Assembly: GCF_006345805.1 (NCBI RefSeq)
Contig: NC_043006.1
Coordinates: forward strand, 50,468,001-50,532,000
Direction: 5' to 3'
DNA length: 64,000 bases
Source of the DNA: Octopus sinensis
Lineage: Eukaryota
Shown in pieces: positions 6,186 to 36,400 of the stretch. The notes beneath the pieces are model-generated. The model did no database searches, was not told where the DNA came from, and saw nothing but the letters and a program-made list of their open reading frames with translations. The translations under genes were made by a program, and so were the position numbers. Numbering within the stretch: the first letter of the stretch is position 1; every line of letters begins with the position of its first letter.

Positions 6186-6203
6186 ATGACTGTGAACATA
6201 ATT

Positions 6204-6237
<34 letters not shown>

Positions 6238-6419
6238 CCATCACCACCATCATCATCACTACCACCACCACCATCATACTCTTCATTGTGACGAAATTAT
6301 AAACATTATTGTCATCTGAATCTAAATCATTTTAACTTGTATTATGGTTATTGTTATTTTTAGAACTAAATAGAAGAAATTCCTACTGCTTCTATTTATT
6401 ATTATTATTATTATTATTA

Positions 6420-6450
<31 letters not shown>

Positions 6451-6612
6451 ATTATTGTTGTTGTTTTGTTATTAAAACACTAATAGGCAGAGGACATTTT
6501 TCAACGAGGAATCCGAATGTAATTATTGTCTCAGGGGTTGCTAATTATGGTCGTGATCACATCGACTTTCCTTCCTCAAATTTTCTCCTCGCCCCTCTTC
6601 CTCCTCCTCCTC

Positions 6613-29100: not shown

Positions 29101-29913
29101 TCTTTTCTACTCTAAGAACAAGGTCCGAAATTGTTGAGGGGGGGCGCAGTCGATTAGATTAACTCCAGTACGCAAGTAGTACTTAATTTATCGACCTCGA
29201 AAGGATGAATGGCAAAGTCGACCTCGGCGAAATTTGAACTCAGAACGTAAAGACAGATGAAATACTATTAAGCATTTCGCTCGGCGTGCTAACGTTTCTG
29301 CCAGCTCGCCGCCTAATGGAATATATTCTTTTGTAATCTAGACACAAGGCCCAAAATTTTGGGTGAGGAGGTCAGTCGATTAGATCGACCCCAGTGCACA
29401 ACTGGTACTTAATTTATCGACCCCGAAAGGATGAAAGGCATCGTCGATTCGGCGGAATTTGAACTCAAAACGAAAAACCGCTAAACATTTCGCCCGGCGT
29501 GCTAGCGTTTTTTATTTCTTTATTGTCCACAAGAGGCTAAACATAGAGGGGACAAACAAGGACAGATAAACGGATTAAGTTGATTACATCGACCTCAGTG
29601 CGCAACTGGTACTTAATTTATCGACCCGGAAAGGATGAAAGGCAAAGTCGACCTCGGCGGAATTTGAACTCAGAACGTAAATACAGACGAAATACCTATT
29701 TCTTTATTACCCACAAGGGGCTAAACATAGAGGGGACAAACAAGGACAGACAAACGGATTAAGTCGATTACATCGACTCCAGTGCGCAACTGGTACTTAA
29801 TTTATCGACCCCGAAAGGATGAAAGGCCAAGTCGACCTCGGCGGAATTTGAACTCAGAACGTAACCGCTAAGCATTTTGCCCGGCGTTCTAACGTTTCTG
29901 CCAGCTCGCCGCC
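29101..29913 (-). mobile_element. Two tandem SINE family A copies, the second with internal duplicated modules
   Basis: Heads end at 29313 and 29913; taatggaatat at 29090, 29314 and 29914. Confidence 0.9.
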
Positions 29914-30067
29914 TAATGGAATATTATATATATATGTTTATTTTACCCATTCTGTTCATAAATTATAGAACTATAAAAGTCACAAACATCTGCTCAATAT
30001 TTGAATTTATAGAGGTTAATGTGTCAGGTTTAGAAAGTCATGTGGTATATAAAATAGATATATTAAT

Positions 30068-30117
<50 letters not shown>

Positions 30118-30126
<9 letters not shown>

Positions 30127-30670
30127 CATGTGTATACAATGTAAGGGACTCTGCAAAGTTTGCACATGATGTATGTTTATATGAGGGAGAAAAGAATGAA
30201 GAAGGAAAGAGTGAAAGAAATTAAGAAACAAAGGCACGGGAAAACGTGGACGAGAAATAAAAAGAATGAGAACGAAAAATTGTAAGAATATGCGATGTAG
30301 AGAAAAGGTAAAATAACAAATGATCAGTGAGAAGGAAGACATCACAATAAATCAAGAAATTTGATGTTACGCGAATGTAAATGACATTTTCAAGAGCGAT
30401 GGATATGTGGGTTCCTAATCATTTGTGTATATTAGTGTGTGTGTATGTACAGAAGTTTTTAGTATATCTAGAACTCCATAAGTTAATGAGTTCATACTCA
30501 TTAACTTACAGAAGAGAGGATGTAATTAGAGGTAGATTTGTCAGCTTATTTTAGTAGGTCGTGAAACCACGTACTGATTATGTGTATATGTATGCCTATA
30601 CGTATGAGTGAATATATTTCTTTATGTATGTGTGCATGTATATGTACATTTATGTATGTATGTATTTATG

Positions 30671-30718
<48 letters not shown>

Positions 30719-31262
30719 CATGTGTATACAATGTAAGGGACTCTGCAAAGTTTGCACATGATGTATGTTTATATGAGGGAGAAAAGAATGAAGAAGGAAA
30801 GAGTGAAAGAAATTAAGAAACAAAGGCACGGGAAAACGTGGACGAGAAATAAAAAGAATGAGAACGAAAAATTGTAAGAATATGCGATGTAGAGAAAAGG
30901 TAAAATAACAAATGATCAGTGAGAAGGAAGACATCACAATAAATCAAGAAATTTGATGTTACGCGAATGTAAATGACATTTTCAAGAGCGATGGATATGT
31001 GGGTTCCTAATCATTTGTGTATATTAGTGTGTGTGTATGTACAGAAGTTTTTAGTATATCTAGAACTCCATAAGTTAATGAGTTCATACTCATTAACTTA
31101 CAGAAGAGAGGATGTAATTAGAGGTAGATTTGTCAGCTTATTTTAGTAGGTCGTGAAACCACGTACTGATTATGTGTATATGTATGCCTATACGTATGAG
31201 TGAATATATTTCTTTATGTATGTGTGCATGTATATGTACATTTATGTATGTATGTATTTATG

Positions 31263-31275
<13 letters not shown>
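30118..31275. repeat. Essentially identical tandem duplication, period 592 bp, bounded by (TA)n
   Basis: tgtgtatacaatgtaagggactc at 30129 and 30721; ORF track shows the same peptides offset by 592. Confidence 0.95.
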
Positions 31276-31309
<34 letters not shown>

Positions 31310-31373
31310 ATATATGTATATATACAGCTTCCATGGGTATGAGTAAGTATCTCATTTATTTCCTTACCACATT

Positions 31374-31426
31374 TATCACTGACGAAGGGAGGGTTCTTAC
31401 GAACTAACCCTGAAATCGGTCCGATA
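31374..31426 (+). ncRNA. Hammerhead ribozyme motif in a TA-flanked module
   Basis: TATCA-CTGACGA-AGGG(agggttcttacgaactaa)CCCT-GAAA-TCGG-TC-CGATA; one stem I mismatch next to the core. Confidence 0.65.
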
Positions 31427-31669
31427 TGGTAATAATGGAATATTTTAGAGATTTCTGTCGACCTTTTTTTGAGTAGCGTGCGAACTGTGGAAAATTACAT
31501 GGTTATGGACAGGGTGTCTAATTTCGGCATATTTGGCATTAGAAATTTTTTCGTTTGCCCTTCTTTATAAGTTGTTTATAAATTTAACCTTTAAAGGTAT
31601 TTTTTTATATGCTGCCCATTGATAAAATTTTTTTCGAAAAAATTTTATACTACATTAAATATATGTATA

Positions 31670-31736
<67 letters not shown>

Positions 31737-31832
31737 GTAGATATATATGTATATATATGAACACTACTATAGAAATATTCCTTTAAAAAAACTTTTCTTC
31801 TAATTTTTCTAAATTTAATTATTTAATCGTTA

Positions 31833-31870
31833 CAGTTGAAAAGGTCTCAAAATGACCGAAACCGGTACTG
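31833..31870 (+). ncRNA. Minimal hammerhead at the PLE 5' end, U3-A8 compensated core
   Basis: CAG-TTGAAAA-GGTC(TCAAAAT)GACC-GAAA-CCGG-TA-CTG; palindromic stem III ACCGGT. Confidence 0.75.
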
Positions 31871-31990
31871 AAATGTTCACTATAAAATTATTTTAGCATT
31901 TTCTATTTTTGACTTGTTTTTTCATATATATCAACTCGTGTGTTCCTTTTCACCCTTATACATATCATTAACCCACACGAGATACAGAAA

Positions 31991-33225
31991 ATGCCGACAA
32001 AAACAGACACAATCACCTCCATAAATGAAGAAATACTGAAAGAACTCAAGAAAATCAACACAAATTTGTCAACATTTTTGAACAAATTCGACTCGACACA
32101 TCAACCCAATCGAGAGAACAATGAGGAAACAGATACGAAAAATACAACCTCCGAAATTGTCGAAAACCTTGGAAACTTATGCGAAACAATTAGAACATTT
32201 TTCTCTAACAACGCTAACCAAGGACCTCCAAACGCGTCAATATATGGGATCAATACTCTAACAACATACCAAATGAAACACCACATAATACCACAATGGA
32301 ACAAATCACTCAGAGATAGAAAGTTCGCCTTTTGGAAGATGATCCAAAGCAACAACAAAGCGGATATATACGAAAAATGGCTCAACCGGACCCCGTTAAT
32401 CCTCCCACGTAAATTCCAGTTCAAAGCCATTACAGAAGAACCTGAAACACAAAGACACCTCAGGGAGAAAATGGCACTGGAAAAAATGAAAATGGAAATA
32501 GAACTTCTGAAATTGAGGGCCCAAACGAATGAGGATAAAATAAAATCCACCGATGAAGATATCAACGAAGAAATTCGCAAAATGACCCAAGGCCCAGATC
32601 AAGAGAAGTTCTCCAAACTATGGAAAGAGGACTGTGAAAAAGAAGAACTAAAATCTCTCTAACGCTGGGAGAAAAGCGCCACTTGGTTCTCAGACTATGA
32701 AGCCGTCTTTCAAACAGAGCACGCCTCCAACAACCCTTTCCAGAAAATAAGAAAACCAAAACAACACCCAAACACCGATACACACCTGTCTAAAAATCGG
32801 AACCTTCACTACTATCAAAAAAAGAATACAGGACCTAACCCTAACTCTGTAAGCAGCCAGCGATACAATATCAGGAATACCCCCACTTCAAGCAGAGAAA
32901 GGATAAATCAACACCCACAGTATAGACACTGCAACCTTATCCCCACCCAAAGGAGTTACCAACGAAATCTTCGTCCCATCAACGGTTAAACAACCATGCA
33001 CAACAAACCCACACCACTTGCAATGATTACCAACGAAGGCCTCCTAGAACACCACACCCGAATATGGGATATCGGGATGCTCTCCTCAATACTGCTCCAA
33101 GAACACACACCATAAATCACAACAGGAGACCCCACATCAACAAAGAACAACTATATACTAGCTACCGTCCCAACCACCGCATTCATTTTTTAGACCCAAT
33201 ACGCAAACACAGAGACACAAGATAG
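31991..33225 (+). pseudogene. PLE upstream ORF (coiled-coil-like, then N/H/R-rich), disrupted by an internal TAA at 32660 and a frameshift near 32970
   Basis: MPTKTDT..WNKSLRDRKFAFWK..LPRKF..ALEKMKMEIELLKLRA..LWKEDCEKEE; reading continues RWEKSATW past the stop and ends ..YRDALLN..IHFLDPIRKHRDTR*. Confidence 0.65.
33186..33192 (+). promoter_or_regulatory. Candidate -1 ribosomal frameshift slippery site T-TTT-TTA
   Basis: In phase with the ORF1 tail (CAT TTT TTA); the -1 frame reads FFRPNTQ..KIINLTHKELTANQINILSKGL. Confidence 0.5.
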
Positions 33226-33571
33226 CACCAAACAAGCAGGAGGAACCAAAAGTAATAAAAATTATCAATCTAACTCACAAGGAACTAACAGCAAACCAAA
33301 TAAACATACTTTCCAAAGGACTCAACACCCCAACTACAATGAAATGAAAGAAGACATCGCAGAATTCTGCAGAAAATTAAGACTTACTGAGGAGCTATAC
33401 GATAAATACAACGAGGACGAATCGTTAGCCAGAAATAGGAGTAACTACACCCCCTCGAAAGGTAAGAACAAAACACTTGATGATTTCTGTGACCACATAT
33501 CAAATTACCCATATCAACATATGCACAAACAAAAACACAAACCAAACTTCAGCAAAAAAAGAATGGGCTGA
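33186..33571 (+). pseudogene. N-terminal part of the PLE polyprotein (two frameshifts)
   Basis: IINL....LT..QI.ILSKGL motif, then MKEDIAEFCRKLRL..SNYTP..KPNFSKK, joining EWAEL..IKEADKG. Confidence 0.75.
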
Positions 33572-35492
33572 GTTGAACAAATTTAAACTAGATAAAACAA
33601 TAACAATCAAAGAGGCCGATAAAGGGAGTGCTGTTGTCTTAATGGATACGACATTTTACATAACTTTGGTACTTTCTATGCTGGAAGACACAACATACTA
33701 TGAAAAGGCACAAAACTACAGTCAACAAAAAATAATGAGGGAACTAAAATCCATATTAAACCCATACAAAGCAGGGCTCACCGACAAAGAATATGATTAT
33801 ATGACCAATTTCACAAGCAAAACCAGCCAATTCTACGGTATACCTAAGATCCACAAAAGTGAGAAAATAAGCAACGCATGCAAGATAGCTACAGACAAAA
33901 TAATTAAAGTCCCTAATGACCTCAAATTGAGACCCATAATAGCAGGTCCCGCATGCGAAACCCACCGCCTCAGTAACTTTTTAGACACCCTGTTAAAACC
34001 ACTCCTAAAACATGTCAAAAGCTATATAAGGGACGACTTAGATATGCTCAATCACCTACCGAATACTATAAACAAAAACACGATACTGGTATCCTTCGAT
34101 GTAGTCAACCTCTACTCCAATATCCCCCACAACCTAGGACTAGAGGCAATCCAATTCTGGCTAGAAAATCACGCCAACGAACTACCACATCGCATCAAAA
34201 AAGAATTCGTGATAGAAGGGGTTAAATTCATCCTGGAAAATAACTTCTTCGCCTTCAATGACAACTTCTACCGACAAAAATCGGGGACTGCGATGGGTAC
34301 ACGAATGGCGCCCTCCTTTGCCAACCTAGTCATAGGATATCTAGAGATCAGTCTGTATCGTAAGGTTCTAGAAAGATATGGCAGCCCTTTCTCCATCTAC
34401 ATAGAAAACAACTGGAAGAGATATCTAGATGACTGTTTCATCCTTTGGCATAAAAATATAGAAAAACTCATAGAATTCCAGGAAATTTTAAACGGACTGG
34501 ACGTAAACATCCAATTCACGATGGAATATAGCCAGCAACAACTCCCCTTCCTCGATATCCTCATTAAGAAAGCTAATAATATAATAGAAACAGACATATA
34601 TTATAAGCCTACAGACTCTAAGCAATATATTCCATTCAATTCATGCCACCCCAGACACACCAGGATGAATATCCCCTTGAACCTAGCAAAAAGGATATGC
34701 ACTATAGTCTCGAACGCAAACACCAGAGACACACGACTACAAGAACTAAAAGATACCCTTATCACCAGGAACTATCCACCTTCACTTATTGACAAGTGCA
34801 TTCAACGTGCCCTTCAACTTAACATAAAGGAACTGAGACATCCCAAATCAAAGAAAAACTTACAACCAAAAGCCTTACCATACATCTCCACACACAACCC
34901 TCTCAATAACGAAGCCTTCGGCACCATACTCCACAACATACCCCTCCTAAAAAAAGACCACAGAATGAACACAATCCTCCAAACACACACGATCATAAAA
35001 AGCAAGAGACAGCCTAAATCCATGAAAAGTCTCCTAACACAAGCCCGAATTCACTCTTCAACACAGAAGCCGACAGTAAAAAAATGTGGAAGACCCAATT
35101 GCGGGATATGCGACTATCTAATTGAGGGATCAGAGTTCTCCTTCAAACAGGGACAACGGTTTACAGTGAAAAGCAACTTCACATGTGCTTCGGAGAACCT
35201 AATATACTCACTAACCTGCTCCGGGTGTCAAGAGCAGTACATAGGCCAAACAAAAAATAGTTTGCGTAAACGAATGGCCCTGCACAGATCCCAGATAAAA
35301 ATTCCCCAAAACAGAAAAATAGCTTTTAGCCAACACATAGATACTTGCGCCAACAAAAAAACACCAAGCTTCAGGATTTTCCCCCTCTACCAATTTAGGG
35401 ACGATACAACCTCGAGACAACGAATAAGTAAAGAAACTCTCTTTATTGCAAAATACAGGCCACTTCTTAACGGGTCTACGACAAACAATTAA
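33477..35492 (+). CDS. Penelope-like reverse transcriptase + GIY-YIG endonuclease (open for 671 codons; true N-terminus upstream and frameshifted)
   Basis: [114 protein letters not shown]. Confidence 0.95.
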
Positions 35493-35659
35493 TATACCTC
35501 AACTTTAGAATAAAAGAAATATTCACACACAAATATTACATTCCAAAGAATCCATTACTAATCACAGCTAAAATCACAGCTATAATCCACAACATGCCAA
35601 CTTCAAGTCATACAACACCTCACTACTTTAACCCATTCATATTCTCCCTTCTCTGTTTT

Positions 35660-35962
35660 TTTCTTCTTCTTCCTCTTTTTCTTCATCATCATCATTATCA
35701 TCATCATCGTCGTCATAACCATCACCATCATCGTCATCTTCTCCTTCTCCTTCTTCTTCTTCTTCTTCTTCTTCATCATCATCATCATCGACATCGTCAT
35801 CTTCTTCTTCTTCTTCTTCTTCTTCTCCTTCTTCTTCTTCTTCTTATATGTATATATATATATATATGTGTATATATATATATATGTATATCATCGTCAT
35901 CTTCTTCTTCTTCTTCTTCTTCTTCTTCTCCTCCTTCTTCTTCTTCTTCTTCTTCTTATATG

Positions 35963-36033: not shown

Positions 36034-36180
36034 GTATGTATATATATATATGTATATATATGTATGTATATATATATGTAAATCTATGTATATATATGTA
36101 TGTATATATATATATGTAAATCTATGTATATATATGTATGAATATATATATATATATGTGTGTGTGTGTATGTATGTGTG
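35660..36180. repeat. (CTT)n/(CAT)n/(TA)n compound microsatellite
   Basis: Direct reading. Confidence 0.95.
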
Positions 36181-36182
36181 GA

Positions 36183-36400
36183 GGCGCGTGGCTTAGTGTT
36201 TAGGGTGTCAGCATCATAATCGTAAGATTGTGATTTCGATTCCTGGACCTGGCGACGCGTTGTGTTCTTGAGCAAAACACTTCATTTCACGTTGCTCCAG
36301 TCCACTCAGCTGGCAAGAATGAGTAACGCTGCGAACATATACGCCATTGAAACCGGGAAACCGGGCCCATGAGCCCGGCTAAGTTTTAAAAGGGCGCATT
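36183..36400 (+). mobile_element. SINE family C
   Basis: Head as in 19288, tail as in 24700-24750. Confidence 0.85.

Follow-up and report, generated by a model that had tools for sequence, protein, structure and literature searches.

Endonuclease-bearing (EN+) Penelope-like elements (PLEs) are canonically described as single-ORF elements (PMC8557442, PMC11167929), and one report contrasts them with two-ORF EN-less PLEs (PMC6431247), at least in the portions of these articles drawn on here. The Fig. 1 legend of Craig 2021 (PMC8557442) refers to an 'ORF1 separated by a frameshift with a pseudoknot' and, within the legend itself, names no clade. Going by that wording, the type in question may already mark Neptune. 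The frameshift-with-pseudoknot type of ORF1 is otherwise said to belong to the EN-deficient Athena elements/Terminons, reportedly in Arkhipova's work of 2017. Our literature search found Craig 2021 only for an Athena frameshift with a pseudoknot, and it found no report of a slippery-site ribosomal frameshift in GIY-YIG PLEs; older PLE papers and Repbase may bear on novelty. A killifish Neptune element, repeat.CL27, has two ORFs that are called non-overlapping, and the part of the article used here does not mention frameshifting (PMC12602865). Outside PLEs, the nearest parallel is the SS1 site of HIV-1, whose heptamer U_UUU_UUA gives FLR/FFR products according to the excerpt of PMC6547452.

The DNA examined was a 64,000-nt window of Octopus sinensis (NC_043006.1, positions 50,468,001-50,532,000; GCF_006345805.1), and the whole genome (2.72 Gb) was searched in addition. 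A young GIY-YIG PLE of Neptune/Nematis type is present in the window as a decayed copy, which extends over ~31752-35845, lies with all its parts on the forward strand, and is flanked by (TA)n tracts. At its 5' end lies part of a pseudo-LTR (pLTR; 31752-31964), which recurs after the 3' UTR in another genomic copy (L079) within a 335-bp direct repeat (L079 1822-2156 = 6188-6522, with L079 6310-6522 matching window 31752-31964). A motif scan placed a hammerhead-like motif with a U3-A8 core variant and a palindromic helix III in the pLTR (31833-31870), and the motif is present with the same core in both L079 repeat copies. The U3-A8 variant has been described before (PMC4209133, in the part consulted). 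An Rfam search returned no hammerhead match, its sole matches being microsatellite-driven ones to miRNAs, all under threshold.

ORF1 (31991-33225; 411 aa in an open copy) is followed by ORF2 (33186-35492), which encodes a PLE reverse transcriptase (RT), a Zn-finger-like linker, and a GIY-YIG endonuclease in the order expected of an EN+ PLE. The RT core (33924-34487) matches Pfam RVT_1 above cut-off (E 3.1e-08) and contains YLDD, while the C-X4-C-X2-C linker CGRPNCGIC (35085-35111) corresponds to the CX2-5CXXC linker between RT and EN by which Neptune/Nematis are defined (PMC8557442, as excerpted). The GIY-YIG domain (35199-35462) falls just under the Pfam cut-off of 22.6 bits (22.2 bits, E 1.8e-04), as it does across the ORF2 sequences tested (21-22 bits), and it carries the CCHH motif, with a CxxC flanked by LIY and YIG and two His farther on. 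The 3' UTR (35493-35845) contains (TTC)/(CAT) repeats and ends in (TA)n, and the 3' pLTR is missing from the window copy. The element thus shares with described Neptune/Nematis EN+ PLEs the RT followed by a C-terminal GIY-YIG domain with CCHH and the CX2-5CXXC linker (PMC8557442, PMC11167929), as well as pLTRs with a hammerhead motif, (TA)n insertion, and an inverted partial copy in L079, as far as the available parts of those descriptions go. This last feature, an inverted 1.8-kb partial copy at L079:1-1824, faces the full element head-to-head, an arrangement already known for PLE insertions. Athena elements are defined by the lack of an endonuclease domain, and the GIY-YIG domain places the window element outside them.

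In contrast to canonical EN+ PLEs, this element has a separate 411-aa ORF1 whose end overlaps the -1-frame ORF2, with a slippery heptamer in the overlap. A preliminary description of the locus had placed TTTTTTA (33186-33192) in X-XXY-YYZ phase with the upstream frame, and this phase holds: the ORF1 frame reads CAT TTT TTA GAC and stops at the TAG at 33223-33225, with ten sense codons between the Leu codon and that stop, a candidate pause. The predicted frameshift site, T_TTT_TTA, is read as Phe-Leu in ORF1 and as Phe-Phe in ORF2, and it lies within a 64-nt overlap (33162-33225) that is open in both the 0 and the -1 frame. From 33162, the -1 frame is free of stops and continues as FFRPNTQ...KIINLTHKELTANQINILSKGL, with no Met ahead of the conserved RT N-terminal motif, as had been described. 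The motif, KIINL...LSKGL (33258-33323), precedes the first Met of ORF2 (codon 68 in L079).

The description had also warned that this copy carries other disabling frameshifts. Comparison with L079 showed one stop and four coding indels, none of them at the junction: ORF1 is broken by a TAA (32660-32662) and a 1-nt deletion (~32983), and ORF2, with two frameshifting indels near its start, has a 19-nt deletion (~33323), a 1-nt insertion (~33554), and a 6-nt deletion (~33912). The two-ORF layout was recovered outside the window in L021 and L079, where both ORFs are open with the same -1 overlap: ORF1 has 411 codons, beginning at its ATG and ending in ...HFLDPIRKHRDTR-stop, and 784 codons are open for ORF2 in the -1 frame. 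Since these copies are open in both frames and the window has no lesion at the junction, the -1 offset is a trait of the family. Likewise, a single continuous ORF across the junction is not what the family shows, as two overlapping ORFs are found in open copies and in other families. A 601-nt junction query returned 621 candidates in the genome, of which 40 were scored and 30 fetched (window included), and T_TTT_TTA is retained in 29 of the 30. The fetched copies are ~95-98% identical to the window, and therefore this retention shows inheritance rather than selection. Copies L031-L060 were left out of the heptamer count (58/60 with them), because they overlap L001-L030 and were chosen for an open ORF2. 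A private mutation of the window copy as the origin of the -1 offset was ruled out by L021/L079 and the 29 of 30 copies.

We propose that the RT-endonuclease is made as an ORF1-ORF2 fusion by programmed -1 ribosomal frameshifting at U_UUU_UUA, and from the sequence comparisons reported here we put the probability of this reading at about 85%. Most ribosomes would terminate at the ORF1 TAG and yield the 411-aa helical ORF1 protein, and a minority would slip back by one base on the heptamer and yield a fusion of ~1175 aa, so that ORF1 protein would be in excess over the enzyme, as Gag is over Gag-Pol. Of the features canonical for -1 frameshifting, the junction shows an X_XXY_YYZ heptamer that is in the phase of the upstream ORF and inside the overlap, and conservation across divergent relatives. 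With HIV-1 gag-pol it shares U_UUU_UUA itself, the Phe-Leu/Phe-Phe-Arg reading (the -1 frame is F-F-R here too), and an ORF upstream of the enzyme ORF that is structural in HIV-1 and may be so here; it differs in that HIV-1 has a stimulatory stem-loop, with none predicted at the PLE junction (for HIV-1, going by the excerpt cited above). The PLE type of the Craig 2021 legend likewise has a frameshift between the RT and a helical or coiled-coil ORF1 that precedes it, but the window element encodes an endonuclease and lacks a predicted structure downstream, as far as a figure legend permits the comparison. By-eye inspection of killifish CL27 sister contigs in the supplement (CL27Contig27) indicated an RT frame that extends for 62 open codons ahead of the called ATG, contains a GL-F-PT motif, and overlaps the end of ORF1 in the -1 frame at G_TTA_AAT. 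Within those supplementary sequences and again by eye, CL27 differs from the octopus element in the esterase-like look of its ORF1, in a stop directly after the heptamer, and in what seems to be a GC-rich hairpin coming next.

Protein searches and 40 fetched regions revealed seven PLE families in the O. sinensis genome, the window family included, with ORF2 N-termini 48-72% identical to that of the window. The junction aligned gap-free across all seven, each with x-Phe-Leu in ORF1 and with ORF2 open across the same point. The heptamer is T_TTT_TTA in six of the seven families and C_TTT_TTA in family F, which is represented by a single copy. By chance, such sites would be rare: in 30,181 nt of element body outside the junction, T6[AG] is found 6 times, which corresponds to ~0.01 in-phase sites per locus in a 150-nt window. 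Heptamer conservation, named in the preliminary description as one of the points to check, extends far beyond the window family.

Within the RT N-terminal motif N...L..G..FTP.P, the residues N, L, G, F, T, P, and P are invariant across the seven families. The first Met of ORF2 falls at open-frame codons 68, 17, 70, 117, 19, 39, and 191, which is downstream of the GLKF motif in four families (codons 68, 70, 117, and 191); the other three have an in-frame Met ahead of GLKF. In the four families whose first Met stands behind the invariant motif, a simple start of ORF2 at an AUG of its own is ruled out. Separate production of ORF2, by termination-reinitiation or by leaky initiation at an AUG or near-cognate codon near the ORF1 stop, would fit the Met residues that precede the conserved motif at some loci, and also the ORF2 codon at +11, which is ATG in three families and ATA, ATA, TTG, and CTG in the other four. 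This +11 pattern is partly automatic, since wherever ORF1 has a stop the overlapping ORF2 codon has to be NTA/NTG. Moreover, 4 of the 13 metagenome loci described below have, as read by eye, GTA or CTA at +11, and such initiation would leave unexplained both the in-phase heptamer and the openness of ORF2 back to exactly the heptamer; we consider it very unlikely.

The first scan of metagenomes with the ORF1 alignment found no relative, nor did ORF2-alignment scans of viral and prokaryotic genomes. DNA was fetched for 23 metagenome loci, 13 of which have an in-phase T6 with ORF2 open from T6 to GLKF, a row count that overstates independent cases because several loci are closely related. The remaining 10 comprise 2 that are too short, 1 without the anchor motif, 4 that are decayed, and 3 without T6. 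Among the 13 sites, 9 read T_TTT_TTA-G and 4 read T_TTT_TTG (L107:1367, L108:546, L109:819, and L115:331), so that the seventh base is always A or G. Usual eukaryotic -1 frameshift sites do not have G as the last base of the heptamer. The U_UUU_UUG sites depart from this rule and count against the frameshifting reading. The upstream ORF matches the ORF1 profile at nine metagenome loci, and ORF2 often begins right at the heptamer and stays open back to exactly there. Its first Met lies behind GLKF in 8 of the 13 loci, and an in-frame Met precedes GLKF in 5. The three loci without T6 (L117:1245-1610, L121:805-1170, and L114) have PLE RT N-termini without a T6 run upstream; in L117 and L121 the upstream open frame lies in the other offset, possibly another junction type.

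The ORF1 proteins offer a further view of the junction. A profile search yielded 820 clusters (50% identity) at E<=0.001, and among the best 150 of these no protein exceeds 496 aa. We examined 152 ORF1-family proteins, using the 78 of at least 340 aa and leaving out the 74 shorter ones. FL occurs within the last 45 residues in 68 of the 78 homologues (FL or FF in 71), compared with a mean of 6.8 and a maximum of 15 in 1000 shuffles and with 4 in a control window farther upstream. In none of the 68 is FL preceded by K, E, Q, M, or W (background 20.5%), in agreement with T as the first base of the heptamer, as codons for these residues cannot end in T. Phe-Leu is strongly preferred over Phe-Phe (68 versus 4 of 78), and the predominance of Leu UUR at the second codon is compatible with slippage that depends on tRNA-Leu, as it does in HIV-1 (PMC6547452, as excerpted). 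No fused ORF1-RT protein was found among proteins of 869-2480 aa, which is weak evidence.

Could the two frames instead be joined by splicing? The preliminary description had offered TTTTTTAG as a possible splice acceptor; at such a 3' site, removal of an intron would connect ORF2 to an exon farther upstream. An AG directly follows the T run in all seven octopus families and in 9 of the 13 metagenome loci, and PLEs are known to retain introns (PMC8557442, in the part used here). Yet the other four metagenome loci read T6-G, and the absence of AG from these distant loci argues against an acceptor, as do the 21 of 68 ORF1 homologues in which the residue after FL cannot begin with G. No consensus donor of the needed phase 2 was present in ORF1 in the five families scanned, and splicing would not need a fixed phase to ORF1. 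Contigs from eight runs, which were only guessed to be RNA, show presence only and drop rare forms; among the joints listed (3; 15 of 34), none was a spliced joint ending at the AG, and contigs from four of the runs (X5, X7, X8, and X9, likewise guessed to be RNA) bridge the junction unspliced. Collectively, these observations make splicing at the AG highly improbable. The second contig mapping was dominated by a high-copy repeat at L061:900-1091. The ORF1 tail of family B contains a tandem duplication of 138 nt that stays in frame (L061:1957-2218) and is absent from the contigs of three runs.

The constant phase of the heptamer relative to the ORF1 codons is what would be expected if ribosomes slip, since ribosomal slippage needs it and neither splicing nor polymerase slippage does. 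Transcriptional slippage, with RNA polymerase adding one U on the T run so that some transcripts carry the fused frame, would suit a homopolymer run within the overlap and needs no RNA stimulator. The run is of only six T, however, and an insertion would work in any phase, whereas the heptamer keeps one phase and ends in A or G at every DNA site examined; in addition, no inserted base at the site was among the contig differences listed, a weak point that rests on contigs only. We regard this route as extremely unlikely, and programmed -1 frameshifting in an EN+ PLE is the best account of this widely conserved junction. The proposal of gag-pol-like translational control in an EN+ PLE thus gains support from conservation, as a prediction from sequence and with no stimulatory fold predicted.

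A stimulatory structure downstream of the site, which the preliminary description had suggested looking for, was not borne out: the 200 nt following the heptamer are A/C-rich and fold no better than shuffles (z +1.14). A consensus fold of the seven families contained 0 pairs, and z was below -2 in just 2 of the 18 loci folded downstream of the site, both analyses covering nested folds only. A conserved hairpin after the site is ruled out by the 200-nt, seven-family, and 18-locus folds, for nested structures. Given that no downstream structure is predicted, the efficiency of frameshifting could be low, and the pause may come from a terminating leading ribosome or from slow decoding of Leu UUA/UUG.

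Eukaryotic disomes have a spacing of about ten codons. The ORF1 stop of the window lies ten codons past the Leu, and the distance is exactly ten in 20 of the 68 homologues with FL and under ten in none. On a quick tree, 19 of these 20 fall into one 28-row group that is weakly supported and has long branches. The ten-codon state is clustered on this tree (midpoint-rooted, with the 10 of 78 long homologues lacking FL left out), requiring 6 changes versus 17.4 when shuffled, and hence it may be one inherited state rather than the product of many origins. Among the seven octopus families the spacing is 10, 20, 10, 30, 11, 20, and 20 codons, five of them having TGG at the stop position instead, and it fails in four metagenome loci (1, 3, 3, and 4 codons). 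Distances of 10, 20, and 30 as proof of disome/trisome spacing were rejected, since those of 20 fall on V/I-I codons that are conserved in ORF2.

In E. coli, stalling of one ribosome at a stop codon favours -1 shifting in another that follows it at a distance of 8-10 codons (PMC6815119, from the part available). We tentatively suggest, as a doubtful but conceivable extension of the frameshifting reading, that a leading ribosome terminating ten codons downstream queues a trailing ribosome on the heptamer and causes it to slip; slow decoding of the Leu UUA/UUG codon would be an alternative source of the pause. The E. coli collision reporters likewise combine a slippery heptad with a stop one ribosome length farther on, with no RNA structure, but they are engineered and peak at 9 codons A-site to A-site, as opposed to 11 in this natural eukaryotic case (PMC6815119, same portion). 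For SARS-CoV-2, the proposed effect of a nearby stop is that the pseudoknot can form again (PMC8168617, as excerpted).

In the gap-free alignment of all seven families (window 33223-33225, L061, L071, L081, L083, L086, and L089), the eleventh codon after the Leu reads TAG, TAA, or TGG, and a DTRW-like tail occurs likewise in homologues P0002 and P0003. Candidates for what is kept at this codon are a stop, a Trp, or a hydrophobic residue of ORF2.

The N-terminal ~245 aa of ORF1 are predicted to be all-helical and are followed by a low-complexity N/R/H/Q/P tail. An AlphaFold2 model of residues 1-260 comprises five long helices (mean pLDDT 87.9, pTM 0.66), and invariant or near-invariant positions are occupied by W, R, P, E, and D. 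No consistent Pfam family was found among 110 members of the ORF1 family, there was no atlas match, and Foldseek returned none at E<=0.001 in the PDB or viral libraries; at this threshold, ORF1 matches neither Gag nor any solved or viral fold. Because of its position and its basic low-complexity tail, the ORF1 protein is probably a structural or RNA-binding partner.

The junction revises the standard picture of EN+ PLEs as single-ORF elements and would bring retrovirus-style stoichiometric control to a telomerase-related retroelement. It also reveals a widespread ORF1 family (the 820 clusters noted above) with no consistent Pfam match, and consensus libraries or functional work starting at the first Met of ORF2 would miss both ORF1 and the RT N-terminus of Neptune elements. 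If ribosome queuing were indeed involved, a large clade of animal Neptune-type elements would use a structure-free -1 frameshift on U_UUU_UUR, and enzyme output would rise with ribosome load, a natural eukaryotic case of collision-programmed recoding. Should the stop spacing be functional, it would provide a simple natural test of collision-programmed frameshifting in eukaryotes.

Several other repeats were observed around the element. Just upstream of it, window 31379-31435 holds a canonical CUGACGA-type hammerhead motif of another repeat, and a near-identical sequence lies at L061:544, upstream of a family B copy. Also just upstream is a tandem duplication (~29865-31400) with a period of ~592 bp (30582 and 31174), and downstream a tRNA-like SINE head with A/B-box-like sequence was noted by eye (~36175-36400). 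Farther away, the window contains two pairs of inverted dispersed repeats, 5260-5719/51632-52091 (460 nt, 95%) and 7206-7496/29578-29868 (291 nt, 91%).
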